Position numbers and translations under genes: made by a program. The notes beneath the pieces are model-generated. The model worked only from the letters and a program-made list of their open reading frames with translations, made no database searches and was not told the origin of the DNA. From positions 1,070 to 65,069 of the forward strand of contig CAZIHL010000001.1 of assembly GCA_964538815.1 (NCBI GenBank): DNA of 64,000 bases, written 5' to 3'. This document shows, piece after piece, positions 161-50,683 of this stretch. Positions within the stretch are counted from its first letter, which is position 1. Every line of letters starts with the position of its first letter. Source of the DNA: an uncultured Candidatus Saccharibacteria bacterium (GTDB lineage Bacteria > Patescibacteriota > Minisyncoccia > Phycocordibacterales > UBA5272).

Positions 161-3100
161 ATGAAAAGTAAAAATAATAGCAAAGATATATCATTGAGAG
201 ATTTTTTACTTTCTTTTACTAAAAAGAAAAAAATCGATTATGTAAATCATATAAAAGTCTTTAAAAAAGACCCTAAGTTCAAGCCTTTTAGAGCATTACT
301 TTTAATTTGGATCATTTTTACTTTATCTGTCGGTTCTACAGGTTTATTTACTTTTCTGAATATAAATAATGCACATTCACAAATAGAATTTAAAATGAAA
401 ACAGGTTATTATCAAGGAACTGGTAAAACATTATCTATTTCTGGATTTGGCTTTTCTCCACAAATGATAATCATAAAAGCTGATACAGCAGCGGGGTCTG
501 CTATCTGGAAATCAATTTCTATGCCAGAAGGAGAATATGCTTATTATGGAAATGCAACAGCGAATGTTTCAGAAAATCAACTTTCATTAGATTCAGATGG
601 TTTTACTGTACAAGTAAATCCTGATGTAAATTCATTGAATGTTCGTTATACTTATATAGCATTTTCTGGAAATGATTGTTCTAGTAACGGTATTATGTGT
701 ATAGGTAGTTATCTCGGAGATGGTTCCACGGATAAAAGTATAAATAATGTAGGATTTCAACCAGATCTCGTTTGGGTAAAAAGATCAGGTGCAGCGGCTG
801 GTAATTTTAGGACTTCGGCTATGACTGGATTAAACTCTTCATATTTGTCTGGAGTTGCAGATAATAATACAGGACTTCTTATAAAATCACTAGACATAAA
901 TGGTTTTACCGTTGGAGTATCAAACAACACAAATGGTGGTAAATTTTATTATGCGGCATTTAAAAAAGCTTTAAATGTTTTAGATGTTGGTCAATATGCA
1001 GGAAATGGTGTGGACGGTAGATTTATAAATACAGTAAATATTCCAAGTAAAGCTCCTTCTTTTGTATTAGTTAAACAAAATGGAACGAACCCTGCAGCCT
1101 TTAATATACCAGAAGATTATGGAGATTTTTCTGCGGCCACATCCTTAACAGCAAATTTTTCTAGCGGCATAAAAGAGTTAAAGAATAATGGTTTTAATGT
1201 AGGTACTTCATTTTTTACAAATGGTTCTGGAAATGGTTATCAATATTTTGCTTTTGCAGAAAATACTTCTCAATCAACAAATGGTTCTTTTACTATGCAA
1301 TTTGGTTCTTATGTTGGTAATGGGACCTCTCAAATTATAAATAATATTGGCTTTACACCAGATCTTGTATTTATAAAATCTTACTCTACTAATGACTATG
1401 CTATTTGGAGTACTAGATTAAATAATAATATGTCTTATTATTTTGGTCTGTCTTCAGCGGGAATACCTAATGCTATAACAGATATGTCTAATAATAGTTT
1501 TTCTGTTGGGAATAATAGCGTCGCCAATGCAAATGGTGTAACATACGAGTACATAGTTTTTGGTAACGCCACTAATCCTATAGATGGAAATAAAGCATCT
1601 GATTTTGTTATTGGAGCATATACTGGAAATGGATTAAATAGACAAATTAATAAATTAAATATAAAACCAGATCTATTGGTTTTAAAACAAACAGGAAATA
1701 CCATATCTGCTTGGTCTAGTTCTAATATGCCAAATAACACAACAGCATATTTTTCTGCATCAGCAGATAGTGTAGGAGGAGGTATAATATCTAGTTTAGA
1801 TACTGATGGATTTAGTATAGGAAATTCTTCAACTGTAAATACTTCTGGGCAATTATATAATTTTTTTATATTCAAAAAAGGGTCTGGTAATTTTGATGTG
1901 GGTAATTTTATTGGTAACGGTGCAATTCAAGATATAACAAATATAACACCTACAACCACTCAAATAGATTTTCAACCAGATTATGTCTGGATAAAGCATG
2001 ATGGAGCTCAAAGAGCTGTGCATACTGTAAATGATCCAAATCTGGGACTTGATACTTTACATTTTACAAATAATGCAAAATTTTCAAATGGAATCACAGC
2101 AATGCTTCCAAATGGTTTTACTGTAAATAACACTGCATTTGTAAATACATTAAATCAAAATTACAGATTCGTATTATGGAAAGCTTCTACACCTACAACT
2201 TCTCCTGATATGCCAGTTGGTATATCACCAACTAATACCAATATTAATTTAAACCCAACGCTAATTGGTTCAAATTATTCTAATCCTAATCCACATTTAA
2301 GTACTATTTGGGAAGTTTCTACTGATCAAAATTTTAATAATATAGTTTGGACGAGAACGTCCACTAGCTCAGAAATAACTACAATTATAAATTCTTCTAA
2401 CGGTATATTTTTAAATGACTTATCAGGAGAAGAAAAGCTAAAACATGATACAGAATATTTTATGAGATTAAAATACTCTAATGGTATTTATTCTGATTGG
2501 TCCATACCAATATCCTTTAAGACTAATAAAATTGATAAACTAACTAATATAACACCCTTAGATACTGAGGTTATAAATACATTAACACCAACTTTTACAA
2601 CTTCTAATTTTAACGATGGAGAAATAGGGCATACCGCATCTTCTTCAAGGTTACAAATAAGCACAAGTATAGATTTTTCTAAGGTTGTTTATGATACAAA
2701 TATAATTCCATATACAAATTCATTTACTATACCCAAAGCAGTTCTTTCTGATCAGACAGTGTATTATTGGAGAGCTCAATATATGGACTCGGATAATAAG
2801 TGGTCAGAATATTCTACTCCAACAAGAATATTAATATCAAAAACAGCAGAACTTTCTGTAATGCCATTGTTTGGAAATACAGTAATAGATAAAAACGATA
2901 ATGTAAACATAGATACTCAAATAAAATCTTCCGATGGACTTCCAGTGAATAATGCGAATGTGACTATAAATATATATAATCCATTAGGAACAAAAATAGT
3001 TTCAGATGCCTTAATGAATTATATAGCATCATCAAAAGGTATATATAGATATAATTACACAATACCAAATTCTACAGGAAGTTATCTTTATGAGATTTCT

Positions 3101-6100
3101 GTATCTACAAGTACATATACTGGTTTCGGGGCTGCTAATTTTGAAGTAAGAAGTTTACAACAAGACATAACTTCTGTAAAAAATATATCCACTTCTGAAC
3201 AGATAGCTCAAACTAATTCTAGAAATGAAATAAATAATATAAAGACGCAATTAAAAGCTGGAATATTGGACGCACCAAAAACTTCTAAATTAGGTAATTC
3301 TGTTACTATAAAATATAGAGCACAGAGTGGTTTATATGGAATAAATTCTCCAAAATTAAATTTATATGACGCTTCTAATGTGCAAAGAATAGTAAATGCT
3401 AATATGGTAGAAATAGGTACAACTGGCGTTTATACTTATGACTTTTTATTACAGCCAAATTGGGGCACTGGTTTTTTCACAATTTTAGCATCAGAAGATA
3501 CAAATAATACTTCTGATAACACTCAACTTTTTGTTGGTAATAATGATATAGATTCTTTAGCTAATTCAGTTTCTACAATTTCTACAAAAATAGACAATTT
3601 ACAAATGAATATGGATATATTAATAGGGGCAATGATTGTTACACAATCAAGTGTGGATGACATATCTCCTACAAACGATTCTTTTATAACAACACTTACT
3701 AATACTACTGATGATTTTTATAAAAATGCAGTTCTTACTTTTACATCTGGAGTTTTGAATGGTCAATCAAGAAGAATATCTTCATATTCTGGCTCTACTA
3801 AAAAAATAATATTATATCCTTTCCTAACTTCTGTACCTACTTCTGGCGACAACTTTACAATAGTTAAACAAAATGTAGCGGTAGAAGAACAATTACAATC
3901 ACACGATAATTTAGAATCTAATTTTAGATCTGATATTACAAATAGACTTACAAATTTACAAACATCAGTTGATAATATATATTCTTTGTTGCAAACAGTT
4001 GATACGAATTTGGATAATATAACAAATAGTATAAATAATATAAGAACTTCTCAAACAAAAAATTATAAAGTGAAACTATCGGATGTTTCTCAAGTACAAG
4101 CTGGACAAGTATATAGAACAAAATTAACTATTTTAGATTATGAATCAAATCCTGTAGATTCTCCTTCTTTACCAGCAGTATTCATATACGATTCAGCAAG
4201 AAATCTAATAGTAAATTCTTCTTCTATGACTAGATTATCAAAAGGAGTATATGAATATACGATAAATATACCCGCCTCAGCTATTAATGGTTTATGGGAG
4301 ACTGTAGTAGATACAAATCTCGGTGGTTCTGATAATCTGTCAACTAATGATTATTGGCAAGTAACAGGTGCTCCAGCTCAAGTTTTGATAAATTCCATGT
4401 CAAACTTAACAGTGCCTAATATTGGAGCAAATATAACAATAACAAATGAAGGCGGCGCTCCTTTTGAATATCAATATGAATGGTGCGTAGTAGAGACTCA
4501 ATCAAATCAATGTGGAGGTGATGATGATATTTATTATGCTTCAGCAGCGAAACTTATTCAAAATGGAGATAGTTTTAATACCACACTTACTGCAAATGTT
4601 AATAATCCTGGTAATTATATCTTTAAACTATTAGTATATTATGGAACAGAATCCTCAGCATCTTCTAGGACTTTTACAGCGATATCTGGCAATAATAATC
4701 CTATTAATACTCAAAATAATTCATTCGGAAATTATTATTCAGGTAGTAGTAATTTAGCTTCTCATGATAATATTTATAATGAATTAATAAAAGCAAAAAA
4801 TCAATTAGATTTAAATGCACAAAAACTTTCTAGAGTTCTAGATCAGTTAGGTGTTATGAATCCATCTTTACAGTCTTTATTAACTATTAATACAGACAAT
4901 CTAAAAGAATTAAAAGATATACAAAACAAAGTATCAGATTTAAGAGCTGTGTCTGTGACTACCAGAAAAATAGTAGAGCAAAAATCTACAGAACCAATAG
5001 TTGAGACTTATATGAAGTTTAATTCTGTAGAAATACATTTTTTAATTACAAATCCTTCCGAAAGTCCTAAAACTTTAAAATTTAAGGCTTATTTACCTGA
5101 AGAGGCAAAGCCAGAATATATAATGGATCTAAATGGTCTAAATTTAGATTATGATGCTAATGTTAAAACTTATTATGTTTATGGAGACATAACTTTAAAG
5201 GGTAAAGAGTCGATAACTAAGAAGATAGAAATGAAAGATATTTGGATTTTTGATGAGCAAGTAATAATAAATATTAAAAAACAAGCTAATGATCTTTTTT
5301 CTACATTAGATAAGACTCAATATCAGGCGCAAGGTTTAATATTAAAAAATAATATAGAAGAATATATTTTATCTATATTAAATACACAAGATAATAGTTA
5401 TTCTTCCCCACAAGAACATATAGTAGTCTATAGAGAAAATAAAGAAAAATTTGCTAGAGTAGAAAGTGAATTAAATAAACTTAAAGATTTAGTAGTCCAA
5501 GCTGGGACAGCGCAAAACATGGTAGGTAAAGTAGGCGGTATTCAGACATTTGCAACTTGGGGCATTATACTTGCTATAGTGTTTGGTTTTGCCATAATGG
5601 CAGCTATTATATTTGCTATGTGGAGACATCAAATTGCTTTCATTTCAGAAATGAAAGATGTTCCACAAAGTAAAATTTACAATCATACCAAAACAAAAGA
5701 AGACCATATTGAAAGATACGGTATTATTAATAGGCGTAATAGGCAAATAAATATAAGAACTATTATAAGAAATATAATATTATTTTCTTTAATATTAGGA
5801 TCTAGTTTATTATTTTATTCTAAATATACATATATTTTTAATAAAATATTTAAATCTTCCACTACAAATAATGATGACTTAAATCATATTTATACAACAA
5901 ATAGTACTCAAAAAGATAAAAATGTTTTATCTAATAATGATGAATCAATATCAACAATATCTACAACAACACAGAATATAGAAAATAATAGTATTAATTT
6001 AACAAAACAATTGTCTTCCTCATCTTCGATTTCAGAAGCTATCTCGACCAATATGCCTAAATTAAAAATTATAAATACTCCGACAGGTTGGCTTAATGTT

Positions 6101-6256
6101 AGAAAAGAGGCAGCTATTGATAGTGAAATTCTTTTAAAAATTTATCCAAAAGATGAGTTTTATTTTAAGGAGAAATTGAATGGTTGGTATATGATTATAT
6201 TAAAGAATAATAGTGTTGGATGGGTAAATGAAAAATATGTAGAAGTAATTAAATAA
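161..6256 (+). CDS. Giant (2031 aa) membrane-anchored surface protein. N-terminal signal-anchor TM, six ~100-aa tandem repeats, FN3/Ig-like beta-rich segments, two coiled-coil-like N/L/Q-rich segments. Near the C-terminus: TM helix, R/K-rich loop, second TM helix, S/T/N-rich linker, then an SH3b-like domain.
   Basis: Single uninterrupted ORF. Hydrophobic stretch FRALLLIWIIFTLSVGSTGLF near the N-terminus. Repeats share G-x-Y-x-G-N-G ... GF-x-PDLV-x-[IV]K ... A-x-W ... SLD-x-DGF-x-VG ... Y-x-Y-x-AF. FN3-like signature YYWRAQYMDSDNKWSEYS. TM helices WGIILAIVFGFAIMAAIIFAMW and IILFSLILGSSLLFYS. C-terminal GWLNVRKEA...GWYMIIL...GWVNEKYVEV resembles the SH3_3 (bacterial SH3) fold. Confidence 0.8.
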   Translation: MKSKNNSKDISLRDFLLSFTKKKKIDYVNHIKVFKKDPKFKPFRALLLIWIIFTLSVGSTGLFTFLNINNAHSQIEFKMKTGYYQGTGKTLSISGFGFSPQMIIIKADTAAGSAIWKSISMPEGEYAYYGNATANVSENQLSLDSDGFTVQVNPDVNSLNVRYTYIAFSGNDCSSNGIMCIGSYLGDGSTDKSINNVGFQPDLVWVKRSGAAAGNFRTSAMTGLNSSYLSGVADNNTGLLIKSLDINGFTVGVSNNTNGGKFYYAAFKKALNVLDVGQYAGNGVDGRFINTVNIPSKAPSFVLVKQNGTNPAAFNIPEDYGDFSAATSLTANFSSGIKELKNNGFNVGTSFFTNGSGNGYQYFAFAENTSQSTNGSFTMQFGSYVGNGTSQIINNIGFTPDLVFIKSYSTNDYAIWSTRLNNNMSYYFGLSSAGIPNAITDMSNNSFSVGNNSVANANGVTYEYIVFGNATNPIDGNKASDFVIGAYTGNGLNRQINKLNIKPDLLVLKQTGNTISAWSSSNMPNNTTAYFSASADSVGGGIISSLDTDGFSIGNSSTVNTSGQLYNFFIFKKGSGNFDVGNFIGNGAIQDITNITPTTTQIDFQPDYVWIKHDGAQRAVHTVNDPNLGLDTLHFTNNAKFSNGITAMLPNGFTVNNTAFVNTLNQNYRFVLWKASTPTTSPDMPVGISPTNTNINLNPTLIGSNYSNPNPHLSTIWEVSTDQNFNNIVWTRTSTSSEITTIINSSNGIFLNDLSGEEKLKHDTEYFMRLKYSNGIYSDWSIPISFKTNKIDKLTNITPLDTEVINTLTPTFTTSNFNDGEIGHTASSSRLQISTSIDFSKVVYDTNIIPYTNSFTIPKAVLSDQTVYYWRAQYMDSDNKWSEYSTPTRILISKTAELSVMPLFGNTVIDKNDNVNIDTQIKSSDGLPVNNANVTINIYNPLGTKIVSDALMNYIASSKGIYRYNYTIPNSTGSYLYEISVSTSTYTGFGAANFEVRSLQQDITSVKNISTSEQIAQTNSRNEINNIKTQLKAGILDAPKTSKLGNSVTIKYRAQSGLYGINSPKLNLYDASNVQRIVNANMVEIGTTGVYTYDFLLQPNWGTGFFTILASEDTNNTSDNTQLFVGNNDIDSLANSVSTISTKIDNLQMNMDILIGAMIVTQSSVDDISPTNDSFITTLTNTTDDFYKNAVLTFTSGVLNGQSRRISSYSGSTKKIILYPFLTSVPTSGDNFTIVKQNVAVEEQLQSHDNLESNFRSDITNRLTNLQTSVDNIYSLLQTVDTNLDNITNSINNIRTSQTKNYKVKLSDVSQVQAGQVYRTKLTILDYESNPVDSPSLPAVFIYDSARNLIVNSSSMTRLSKGVYEYTINIPASAINGLWETVVDTNLGGSDNLSTNDYWQVTGAPAQVLINSMSNLTVPNIGANITITNEGGAPFEYQYEWCVVETQSNQCGGDDDIYYASAAKLIQNGDSFNTTLTANVNNPGNYIFKLLVYYGTESSASSRTFTAISGNNNPINTQNNSFGNYYSGSSNLASHDNIYNELIKAKNQLDLNAQKLSRVLDQLGVMNPSLQSLLTINTDNLKELKDIQNKVSDLRAVSVTTRKIVEQKSTEPIVETYMKFNSVEIHFLITNPSESPKTLKFKAYLPEEAKPEYIMDLNGLNLDYDANVKTYYVYGDITLKGKESITKKIEMKDIWIFDEQVIINIKKQANDLFSTLDKTQYQAQGLILKNNIEEYILSILNTQDNSYSSPQEHIVVYRENKEKFARVESELNKLKDLVVQAGTAQNMVGKVGGIQTFATWGIILAIVFGFAIMAAIIFAMWRHQIAFISEMKDVPQSKIYNHTKTKEDHIERYGIINRRNRQINIRTIIRNIILFSLILGSSLLFYSKYTYIFNKIFKSSTTNNDDLNHIYTTNSTQKDKNVLSNNDESISTISTTTQNIENNSINLTKQLSSSSSISEAISTNMPKLKIINTPTGWLNVRKEAAIDSEILLKIYPKDEFYFKEKLNGWYMIILKNNSVGWVNEKYVEVIK
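392..2200 (+). repeat. Six in-frame tandem repeats of about 300 nt (about 100 aa) inside the giant surface-protein gene (approximately aa 78-680).
   Basis: The peptides GFGFSPQMIIIKAD, GFQPDLVWVKRSG, NIPSKAPSFVLVKQNG, GFTPDLVFIKSYS, NIKPDLLVLKQTG and DFQPDYVWIKHDG recur at roughly 100-aa spacing. Each is followed by a matching block: A-x-W, then S-LD-x-(D/N)GF-x-(V/I)G, then Y-x-Y-x-AF. Confidence 0.7.
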
Positions 6257-18560: not shown

Positions 18561-18673
18561 ATTTTTTCTATTTTTTTAAACTTAAAAAGTAAAACATTTT
18601 TAATGTTAATAATATTATACAATATTATTTTTATTTTGAGGGTAAAATAATTAATAGTTATCCACAATCGGTA

Positions 18674-20921: not shown

Positions 20922-21494
20922 ATGTTTATGAAAAAGCAAGATAAGATTTTAAAGAAAGTTTCACCAATGTCAAAAAAACTGACAAAGGCTCTAAGTAAGA
21001 ATGCTTCTAAGAGTGTAGTCGAAAAAAAAGTTTCAGCTAAGAAAGGAATTAATGCAGCAGATAAGTATTATTTACCAGATCATCATTTTAAAAAAGTAAA
21101 AGTAAAGAAAGGTATAAATGGGCTTGGGCTTTTTGCGGGAGAAGATATTAAAAAAGGAGAACTTATAATAGAATATATTGGAAACATATTAACTGACGCG
21201 GAGACAGATAAAATTCCAGACAGTAGATATATCTTTTCAATTTCTAAAAATCATAATATAGATGGGACTCCAAGATGGAACATTGCAAGATATTGTAATC
21301 ATTCTTGTGATCCAAATTCTGAAAGTGATGTTAAAAAGAAAAGAGTATTTGTAAAAGCTATAAAAAATATAAAAGAAGGGGAAGAGATTTGTTATGATTA
21401 TGGAGAAGAATATTTTGTAGAATTTTTAAAAGGACATTGTATGTGTGGTGCCGAGAAACATCTTTATAGTGATGAACCAAAGAAAGAGAAATAA
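20922..21494 (+). CDS. SET-domain protein (putative lysine methyltransferase) with a lysine-rich N-terminal tail.
   Basis: GLGLFAGEDIKKGELIIEYIG (GxG), RYCNHSCDPN, EEICYDYG (ELxxDY-like), and a post-SET-like CMCGAEKH cluster. Confidence 0.75.
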   Translation: MFMKKQDKILKKVSPMSKKLTKALSKNASKSVVEKKVSAKKGINAADKYYLPDHHFKKVKVKKGINGLGLFAGEDIKKGELIIEYIGNILTDAETDKIPDSRYIFSISKNHNIDGTPRWNIARYCNHSCDPNSESDVKKKRVFVKAIKNIKEGEEICYDYGEEYFVEFLKGHCMCGAEKHLYSDEPKKEK

Positions 21495-21512
21495 TAAAAT
21501 AAATGTAAATTG

Positions 21513-21540
21513 CCCCGCGCCTTCGGCGCGAGATAATTTT
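21513..21540 (+). terminator. GC-rich hairpin after the SET gene; the T-run after it is weak.
   Basis: ccgcgcc ttc ggcgcgg-like stem at 21515-21530 in a region that is otherwise about 95 percent A/T. Confidence 0.45.
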
Positions 21541-21872
21541 TAAAAAGAATTTCCATTTTAAAATTTTTTATAAGATTAAAAAATATTTTTTATTTTATTC
21601 TTAAATTTATTTTTTAAAATTTTATTTTAAAAAATAAAAAATAACTTAAAAAATTTTTAAACGATTTGTAATTTTAAAATATATTTTTATTTTTATAAAA
21701 ACAAAAAATAATTTTAAAAAATTTTTTTAAGTTATCCACAAATTTTTTTTATAAAAGTATTGTGAAAATTTTTTTGTGATGAGATAATTATATTAGAGAG
21801 GCAAGATCAAAGGTCCAAGATCAAAAATTAAAAGCGCACTCTCAAGTATTCAATACTTTAAAAAATAAAATT

Positions 21873-21959
21873 ATGGTAGCAAAGAAAAAAGCTGCAAAAA
21901 AAGTTGCAAAGAAAAAAGTTGCTAAAAAAGCAACAAAAAAAGTTGCAAAGAAAAAAGTA
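21873..21959 (+). CDS. Tiny lysine-rich ORF of 28 aa (MVAKKKAAKKLQRKKLLKKQQKKLQRKK), built on a 15-nt tandem repeat. An overlapping frame encodes (KKVAKK)n.
   Basis: ATG at 21873, TAG at 21957. Tandem aaaaaagttgcaaag-like units. A TGaGATAAT extended -10 sits at about 21780-21788. Confidence 0.3.
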
Positions 21960-21993
21960 GCAAAAAGAAAATAATTGACATATTATTTTAACT

Positions 21994-22032
21994 AAAATCC
22001 TCTGCGTCTCCCACGACAGAGGATTTTAGTTT
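21994..22032 (+). terminator. Intrinsic terminator hairpin (11-bp stem, 12-nt loop) downstream of the K-rich micro-ORF.
   Basis: aaaatcctctg ... cagaggatttt followed by T-rich sequence. Confidence 0.55.
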
Positions 22033-22165
22033 GTAAAATAATATTATAAATAAAGGGTATTATCAATATAATATTATTTTATTTTAATTAAAATAATTGA
22101 GTTATAATATAATTGTGTAGGTAAAAATTTATTAAATTATTAATCTTTTAAATATTAAAGTATAT

Positions 22166-50625: not shown

Positions 50626-50643
50626 TGATTTTATGGAATGTGG

Positions 50644-50683
50644 ATAATTGGGCGGTGGCCGAAGGCCACCGCCCATAATTTAT
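50644..50683 (+). terminator. GC-rich hairpin terminator after gap.
   Basis: ttgggcggtggcc gaa ggccaccgcccaa (12-bp GC stem). Confidence 0.6.

Follow-up and report, generated by a model that had tools for sequence, protein, structure and literature searches.

A predicted SET-domain lysine methyltransferase gene next to a conserved mini-gene cassette for a lysine-rich, histone H1 tail-like micro-protein in a Candidate Phyla Radiation bacterium

In a 64,000-nucleotide stretch of contig CAZIHL010000001.1 (the window, by which we mean the whole stretch of DNA that was analyzed), a gene for a SET-domain protein lies next to a micro open reading frame (micro-ORF) that encodes a very lysine-rich peptide. 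The window has a base composition of about 28% GC, and its gene content and closest relatives are those of the Candidate Phyla Radiation (CPR), the relatives of its genes being mostly labeled Paceibacteria, Parcubacteria or Nomurabacteria. Locally, the genes for HSP20 and valyl-tRNA synthetase (ValRS) on the minus strand are followed on the plus strand by the SET gene, the micro-ORF, and the genes for a ribosome hibernation factor (HPF) and a cyclophilin. The SET gene and the micro-ORF would appear to be two neighboring, independently transcribed genes, one coding for a catalytically intact SET enzyme and the other being a self-contained mini-gene cassette with its own upstream site, promoter, structured leader RNA and terminator. 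Conservation counts refer to 80 related genomic loci with a total of 896 kb and flanks of about 6 kb around the SET gene. The features of the locus are as follows.

20922-21494, plus strand: gene for a SET-domain protein-lysine methyltransferase (Pfam SET, fold, invariant motifs)
about 20928-21080, plus strand: Lys/Ser-rich N-terminal tail with conserved KKQ(D/S)KILKK, part of the SET gene
about 21120-21404, plus strand: SET core, part of the SET gene
21438-21461, plus strand: post-SET CxCx4H motif, part of the SET gene
21516-21530, plus strand: GC-rich hairpin CGCGCC-TTC-GGCGCG that closes the SET transcription unit (terminator scan)
21531-21729, no strand: extremely AT-rich spacer, lowest-GC region of the window
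21730-21740, plus strand: AGTTATCCACA, a perfect DnaA-box 9-mer plus AG, conserved site ahead of the micro-ORF
21760-21788, plus strand: sigma-70-type promoter with -35 TTGTGA (21760-65), 17 nt, and extended -10 TGaGATAAT (21780-88) (promoter scan)
21795-21872, plus strand: 5' leader of the micro-ORF mRNA, about 78 nt (alignments A2 and A4, single-sequence folds)
21796-21802 with 21836-21843, plus strand: leader helix P1, GAGAG(GC) pairing with (GC)aCTCTC (alignment and folds)
21805-08 with 21819-22, plus strand: leader helix P2, GATC pairing with GATC and presenting GGUC at 21812-15 (alignment and folds)
21845-57, plus strand: small leader hairpin, followed by an A/U-rich run to the ATG (alignment and folds)
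21873-21974, plus strand: micro-ORF, a 33-codon gene for a polycation that resembles a histone H1 tail (conserved in 60 of 77 informative related loci)
21994-22033, plus strand: intrinsic terminator of the micro-ORF, AAAATCCTCTG, loop, CAGAGGATTTT and T-rich tail (sequence, fold)

The product of 20922-21494 is a SET plus post-SET lysine methyltransferase with intact motifs and predicted activity. The Pfam SET domain (PF00856) matches residues 67-161 (E=2.1e-26, 92.8 bits against a cut-off of 22.4), the motifs GLG (G67-L-G69), A122-RYCNHSCDPN132 and E154-EICYDYG161 are invariant or nearly so in 109 homologues, and the S-adenosylmethionine-binding and catalytic motifs align with those of KMT2C. 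The post-SET motif is present as CMCGAEKH, in which the third cysteine is replaced by an invariant histidine, resulting in CxCx4H instead of CxCx4C, and none of the four putative zinc ligands (C129, C173, C175 and H180) varies among the 109 homologues. Among PDB sequences, the SET domains of KMT2C and MLL1 come closest (E about 6e-19). In the AlphaFold2 model, the core reaches predicted local distance difference test (pLDDT) values of 86-98, and the best structural matches found by Foldseek are G9a and MLL1 (probability 1.00, E about 1e-10, root-mean-square deviation 2.5-3.2 Å). Translation probably starts at the ATG at 20928 (MKKQDKILKK), which results in 188 rather than 190 residues, since an identical database protein (P0001) and all relatives agree on this start; an exact-sequence look-up of the window SET returned no called gene. 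An earlier note on this DNA had described a 190-residue SET protein with GxG, NHSCDPN, EEICYDYG and a post-SET cluster behind a lysine-rich tail, and both the domain with its motifs and the tail are confirmed. Its remark on the rarity of SET proteins in free-living bacteria does not hold for this lineage: clustering at 90% identity leaves more than 650 groups of relatives, and close relatives are encoded by 376 GTDB species representatives, in both cases almost all from the CPR. SET enzymes are thus a standard feature of a large CPR clade, and the impression of rarity has to be corrected.

The N-terminal tail comprises about 53 residues ahead of LPDHHFK, is rich in Lys and Ser with about 30% Lys, and is predicted to be disordered (pLDDT 33-51). 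Near its beginning it carries the conserved motif KKQ(S/D)K(I/V)LKKG(S/G)K (window 20928-20970, residues 3-16), whose first Lys is invariant and which could be an automethylation or pseudosubstrate site. The N-terminus has no hydrophobic signal peptide upon inspection of the sequence. As an observation in its own right, the motif has a faint similarity to the surroundings of K4 in the histone H3 tail (TKQTARKSTGGK), and the closest relatives of the enzyme are H3K4 methyltransferases; substrate mimicry was considered on this basis, and the likeness of KKQSKILKKGS to the H3 tail TKQTARKSTGG was found too weak to be used.

The micro-protein MVAKKKAAKKVAKKKVAKKATKKVAKKKVAKRK consists of Lys at 17 of its 33 positions (52%), has a net charge of about +18, and is the only product of its kind encoded in the 64 kb. 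Exactly one such micro-ORF, with 21-58 codons, is present in 58 of the 80 related loci, and two further loci are truncated inside the cassette; the micro-ORF is always found 3' of the SET gene on the same strand and nowhere else in the flanks. The relatives start with M[AV]AKKKA[AV]KKVAKK and end with KRA, KRK or KKKK. ATG and reading frame are conserved while the repeat number changes, and a comparison of codons 1-14 in 23 distinct sequences gives 0, 2 and 10 variable columns at codon positions 1, 2 and 3, respectively. Judged by this pattern of variation, the micro-ORF is a real protein-coding gene under purifying selection. The earlier note had seen only Lys, Ala, Val, Leu, Gln and Arg in its product; the lysine-rich repeats are there, but the peptide contains Thr and neither Leu nor Gln, which stem from another reading frame. 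The gene is essentially missing from public collections: an exact-sequence look-up of the micro-protein showed that it has not been called, and a protein database search with a 40-residue relative gave four weak matches, all of them artificially extended open reading frames. The micro-ORF has no Shine-Dalgarno sequence, which is the case for most genes of the window. A Shine-Dalgarno-like motif is located no more than 25 nt from the start codon in just 3 of the 53 window genes, and this organism therefore seems to start translation largely without such pairing. In composition and repeats, the micro-protein is like a histone H1 tail, and its composition suggests DNA binding. The opening MAAKKKAAKK also occurs, with the same codons, as N-terminal tail of larger DNA-binding proteins that are SWIB-like (L091, L164, L171) or HU-like (L107), and the organisms with such tails mostly have a higher GC content.

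Upstream of the micro-ORF, AGTTATCCACA is present in the same orientation at 59 of 59 SET-linked micro-ORFs, at a median distance of 136 nt before the ATG, and it also occurs in at least 28 cassettes without SET. The perfect 9-mer TTATCCACA at 21732-21740, already noticed in the earlier note as a DnaA box, is one of three perfect copies in the window, and with up to one mismatch there are 28 copies versus 20 expected, which is not significant within the window alone. A first reading from these window statistics, according to which the box was due to chance, was overturned by the cross-genome conservation: 59 of the 77 boxes across the 896 kb fall at the micro-ORF site, with about 11 expected from a base-composition estimate. 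The conserved GAGAG was taken to mark where the transcript begins, and in 55 of 56 loci it follows the box start at a distance of 63-66 nt. By this comparison, no other base sequence of the locus is as well conserved as the DnaA box. The site matches the consensus TTATNCACA at a fixed promoter distance, with a perfect TTATCCACA in all 59 cases, and since the strongest DnaA-box consensus has exactly this sequence, the most straightforward candidate for its reader is DnaA. The promoter-like TGaGATAAT of the earlier note is accompanied by the -35 element TTGTGA; the relatives keep TATTGTrT or TTGTGA, 17 nt and TGn(C/G)ATA(C/A)T between box and GAGAG. If transcription is assumed to start at A21795, the center of the box is at about -59, a geometry that is typical for upstream activator sites. 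The AT-rich stretch that precedes the promoter had been estimated at about 95% A/T between 21540 and 21790; it is real and the only place in the window with up to 10% GC per 200 nt, but it has 8.4% GC (91.6% A/T) and is a spacer whose length and composition vary in relatives, the gap from the SET stop codon to the ATG being 184-446 nt in adjacent loci. Compared with the earlier note, the case has become stronger for DnaA box, promoter and micro-ORF, and weaker for the AT-rich stretch.

Some further observations concern boxes and repeats around this site. A second AGTTATCCACA is found at 18656-18666 in the HSP20-ValRS spacer, which also contains the hsp20 promoter; it has the opposite orientation relative to hsp20, precedes a minus-strand TATTGTATAAT element by about 33 nt, and is conserved in close relatives only (L001-L005, L007, L008, L010). 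The third perfect TTATCCACA (50639-50647, minus strand) is located in the intergenic region of gap (GAPDH) and rpiB, immediately ahead of the terminator hairpin of gap, and all three perfect boxes of the window are thus intergenic. About 30 nt 5' of the cassette box, between SET terminator and box, several loci (L011, L012, L014, L020, L026, L043, L067, and L065 in flipped form) have an inverted repeat of about 11 bp, such as TTTATGCAAAT-tcttcgc-ATTTGCATAAA. Possible roles are those of an operator or a second hairpin terminator, and it could also be a repeat element; the clade of the window has pure A/T in its place.

The leader between promoter and micro-ORF most probably is a structured RNA. 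In an alignment of 23 sequences, 97% of the cells are paired, as compared to 30-59% with the partners slid, and compensatory changes occur at three pairs of the inner helix P2; the outer stem is invariant and thus carries no information for or against pairing. This structure was set by hand on alignment A4, and the pairs were then counted, whereas RNAalifold predicted no structure on the raw MAFFT alignment A2 because of its gaps. Single-sequence folds concur in an outer stem GAGAG(U)/(A)CUCUC and an inner GGUC hairpin, e.g. UGAUCAU-GGUC-GUGAUCA, and in the clade of the window the inner hairpin consists of GAUC or GACC, the 10-nt loop AAAGGUCCAA, and GAUC or GGUC. Cassettes of other lineages have stems that are unrelated in sequence yet close directly on GGUCG, which is the stronger argument for an RNA structure. 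A covariance model of the leader (R1) recognizes one site in the window (21795-21844, E=0.004). Rfam 15 had no hit over the whole window at gathering scores, and at 21480-22160 there were chance-level matches only (E of at least 0.3), none of them on the leader core.

Both genes end with their own hairpins. The micro-ORF terminator hairpin at 21994-22027 has a fold energy of -28.8 kcal/mol, in agreement with the earlier view that the unit ends at its own terminator, and a strong hairpin terminator follows the micro-ORF in every relative that was inspected; hairpins analogous to the SET terminator are likewise found 3' of SET in relatives. The loops of the micro-ORF terminators share CTCCCA(Y)G despite differing stems (window 22005-22016; L002, L011, L020, L043, L055), and such a loop conservation is unusual for an intrinsic terminator.

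The pairing of the two genes, which the earlier note had suggested to look for in relatives together with the conservation of the micro-ORF, is indeed found: all 51 informative loci in which the SET protein has the long tail hold one lysine-rich micro-ORF downstream on the same strand, adjacent in 42 cases (gap 184-446 nt) and displaced by 0.9-3.7 kb in 9 cases, the displacement being explained by genes inserted between SET and cassette. In three of the displaced loci (L001 4840-7375, L003 6745-9234, L031 7008-9459), the inserts comprise a reverse transcriptase, an Avd-like four-helix-bundle gene on the opposite strand and candidate target genes, and they look like diversity-generating retroelements. 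The pairing is kept in loci without ValRS upstream (L065, L067, L068, L146), and it persists where the downstream neighbors HPF, peptidyl-prolyl isomerase (PPIase), Fmt, Def and PriA are lost, which are retained only in close relatives and one other subclade. As judged from these gene orders, the two genes are truly paired, and one large clade has conserved this arrangement, yet it does not amount to an obligate two-gene module.

How might such a locus function? The basic, disordered tail of the SET protein probably anchors the enzyme on DNA, RNA or some other polyanion. At the cassette, the site at about -59 could couple transcription to the replication initiator or to another reader of the 11-mer, and the extended -10 promoter would drive a transcript that opens with the stem and the GGUC hairpin. 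By our guess, this leader controls the stability or translation of the mRNA, possibly by a feedback of the basic product. The 33-codon polycation would, in view of its similarity in composition to the C-terminal domain of H1, bind and neutralize nucleic acid, and the intrinsic terminator would end the cassette. The SET enzyme, whose gene is always upstream of the cassette in the Paceibacteria clade with the long-tail SET, may then mono-, di- or tri-methylate the micro-protein, and possibly its own tail, whereby charge-based binding could be tuned. That SET methylates lysines of the neighboring micro-protein is the reading that we tentatively favor, with a probability that we place slightly below even. 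This reading builds on clade-restricted synteny.

A number of observations weigh against it. SET and micro-ORF are separate transcription units with a terminator and a dedicated promoter between them, and there is no operon. The synteny with SET is as strong for HSP20 and ValRS as for the micro-ORF, so that synteny alone is no proof of a functional link, and the inheritance of a block of genes could explain the adjacency. Next to tail-less SET relatives, the cassette is found in 10 of 27 loci, and the other 17 have no cassette within 3-6 kb (11 are low-GC and CPR-like, 6 are high-GC, with 4 titled alphaproteobacteria and 2 titled CPR). Moreover, the cassette is common without SET. A reciprocal metagenome scan for the start of the micro-ORF gave at least 120 loci, and at least 28 metagenomic loci have box, GGUC(G) leader and micro-ORF without SET, at least 25 of the SET-free contigs having at least 850 nt of upstream sequence; among the matches listed, SET is upstream in 6 loci, and two more have the same leader and too little upstream sequence. 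For the SecA protein beside one SET-free cassette, the closest proteins carry the names Paceibacterota or Nomurabacteria. Pfam and NCBIfam detect no homology of the micro-protein to Hc1, H1 or any family, and in the AlphaFold model the SET protein's own N-terminal tail, which is modeled at low confidence, is not docked in the active site.

The remaining matches of the scan are longer lysine-rich proteins or SWIB-/HU-like N-terminal tails from high-GC organisms with normal Shine-Dalgarno sites. Recurrent neighbors of SET-free cassettes are secA downstream, which is co-directional in 10 of 26 cases (L082, L084, L093, L097, L103, L125, L130, L131, L162, L199, with the cassette immediately upstream), and murB upstream (L082, L142, L158, L160, L161, L167, L180, L193, with the cassette immediately downstream). 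No other modifying enzyme was found beside SET-free cassettes, where only secA, murB and unknown membrane proteins recur. As the cassette is found without SET, it is autonomous, and SET is a clade-specific neighbor; compared with the adjacent SET gene, the cassette is both older and found more widely among CPR-like genomes. The chromatin-mark module proposed in the earlier note, composed of SET and basic peptide, thus holds with respect to the pairing in all long-tail loci, but not with respect to a joint unit.

What alternatives exist for a methylation of the micro-protein by SET? The adjacency could be inherited gene order, with SET acting on another substrate (a protein of the ribosome or of translation, a different nucleoid protein, or one from the host cell of the episymbiont) and with the micro-protein working unmodified. 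We regard this as quite possible although still doubtful. The equal synteny of HSP20 and ValRS, the separate promoters and terminators, the SET-free cassettes and the tail-less SET relatives that often have no cassette all speak for it, and several characterized bacterial SET proteins are effectors on host histones, as PMC3980110 states. However, a mere inheritance of gene order does not easily account for a co-occurrence in 51 of 51 loci with constant order and strand when the SET proteins are only about 55% identical and the downstream flank is reshuffled, nor for pairing that is kept where the ValRS neighbor is lost, and a host effector is at odds with an N-terminus that has no hydrophobic signal peptide.

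Three further explanations were considered. The micro-ORF could be a cis-acting leader peptide whose run of Lys codons senses Lys-tRNA or stalls the ribosome, thereby attenuating HPF here and secA elsewhere; a short ORF that is half Lys, a strong terminator about 20 nt later and the co-directional secA genes fit this idea, but the peptide sequence itself is conserved (MAAKKKA[AV]KKVAKK, with KRA/KRK end) with changes at third codon positions, the conserved structure lies 5' of the ORF and not between ORF and terminator, no alternative antiterminator pairing was seen, and the downstream genes differ by lineage and are often convergent on the other strand. The model was rejected on this neighbor variability, and we regard it as very unlikely. 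Even less probable is a small non-coding RNA as the conserved unit, with an ORF that is open by accident in A-rich sequence. The 5' part is indeed a conserved structure, A-rich sequence is open in several frames, and the ORF is missing from gene calls, but an accidental ORF would not be expected to have a conserved ATG, a frame kept across 21-58 codons, variable sites that concentrate at third codon positions (0/2/10), and a start MAAKKKAAKK that is reused as tail of SWIB-/HU-like proteins, and the missing Shine-Dalgarno sequence is normal in this window. The chance that the AT-rich island with its DnaA box is the chromosomal replication origin is close to negligible: the perfect box does adjoin the most AT-rich 200 nt of the window, but it is the only box in the spacer, the cumulative GC skew has no turn here, genes are co-directional on both sides, and the AT stretch is conserved in neither length nor composition while the box keeps its 63-66 nt to GAGAG. 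This rigid distance fits a promoter element. An origin was rejected in view of the single box, the lacking skew turn and the unconserved spacer.

Returning to the methylation of the micro-protein by SET, a much wider generalization can be formulated, namely that Patescibacteria pack their DNA with a universal, so far unannotated H1-like micro-protein, the synthesis of which is coupled to replication initiation by the DnaA box and throttled by a leader RNA of a new structured class, and that in the Paceibacteria the neighboring MLL-like SET with its tail methylates this micro-protein in a minimal writer-substrate system with replication-coupled expression of the 'histone'; we consider this generalization unlikely. 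If methylation of the micro-protein is true, CPR bacteria would have the simplest known chromatin-mark system, in which a genome of less than 1 Mb encodes a single writer and a single substrate of 33 residues. Irrespective of any link to SET, the micro-ORF is a widespread protein-coding gene that has been missed by gene callers and databases, its leader is a conserved RNA without Rfam counterpart, and an 11-mer that is identical to the strongest DnaA box has a rigid promoter position across deeply diverged genomes, which provides a handle on transcription control and replication coupling in mostly unculturable organisms.

Elsewhere in the window, a single ORF of 2031 residues occupies 161-6256 at the window start. 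Searches with NCBIfam, PADLOC and PHROGs gave nothing informative. In one limited literature collection, we found neither a paper connecting SET domains with CPR bacteria nor a description of a cassette of box, leader and micro-ORF, and absence from that collection is no proof of novelty.

Among known systems, the closest parallels are prokaryotic SET enzymes that act on chromatin proteins, and these precedents make a methylation of the micro-protein plausible. According to PMC3980110, cpnSET of Chlamydophila pneumoniae binds Hc1 and Hc2 and methylates Hc1 (Murata et al. 2007), and the C. trachomatis orthologue NUE, in the same source, did not methylate Hc1. In both cpnSET-Hc1 and the present locus, a bacterial SET enzyme goes together with a small, very lysine-rich protein of the same cell, which condenses the nucleoid in Chlamydophila and is a candidate nucleoid protein here. 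The differences are that the micro-protein is a 33-residue K/A/V repeat without Hc1 domain (no Pfam match), that the genes are immediate neighbors here, and that the organism is a CPR bacterium. In Methanosarcina mazei, Gö1-SET methylates the chromatin protein MC1-α at a single residue, Lys37 (Manzur and Zhou 2005; PMC3980110). This pair likewise consists of a minimal prokaryotic SET protein and a small basic protein of its own cell, but it is archaeal, MC1 is folded, and one Lys is targeted, whereas the candidate substrate here is a low-complexity polycation. KMT2/MLL and G9a (EHMT2) are the best matches in sequence and fold, with GxG, NHSC, YDY and the post-SET zinc site in common; the window SET differs from them by having no pre-SET or accessory domain, by CxCx4H, and by its basic N-terminal tail of 50 residues.

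DnaA is known to act as a transcription factor at promoters, e.g. at that of dnaA itself or of gidA-parAB in Pseudomonas (PMC13438810). The cassette resembles such DnaA-controlled promoters in that a consensus TTATCCACA box lies just 5' of a sigma-70-type promoter, but here it is a single box that is fixed at about -59 before a micro-protein gene and that may be bound by DnaA. A structured 5' region ahead of a gene for a small, highly basic protein that binds nucleic acid, as predicted for the product of the cassette, and the overproduction of which would be harmful, is found in ribosomal-protein leaders and in chlamydial hctA, which is under translational control by the small RNA IhtA; in contrast to these, the leader of the cassette matches no Rfam family. 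The tails of mycobacterial HupB, AlgP and Hc2 and the C-terminal domain of histone H1 have AKKA/VAKK-type repeats with about 50% Lys, and the relatives of the micro-ORF vary in repeat number as these tails do. In the cassette, however, the repeat is the whole protein, there is no folded domain, and promoter, leader and terminator are dedicated to it. The mini-gene, its promoter element and its leader RNA are previously undescribed, whereas a prokaryotic SET enzyme beside a histone-like protein is of an already known kind.

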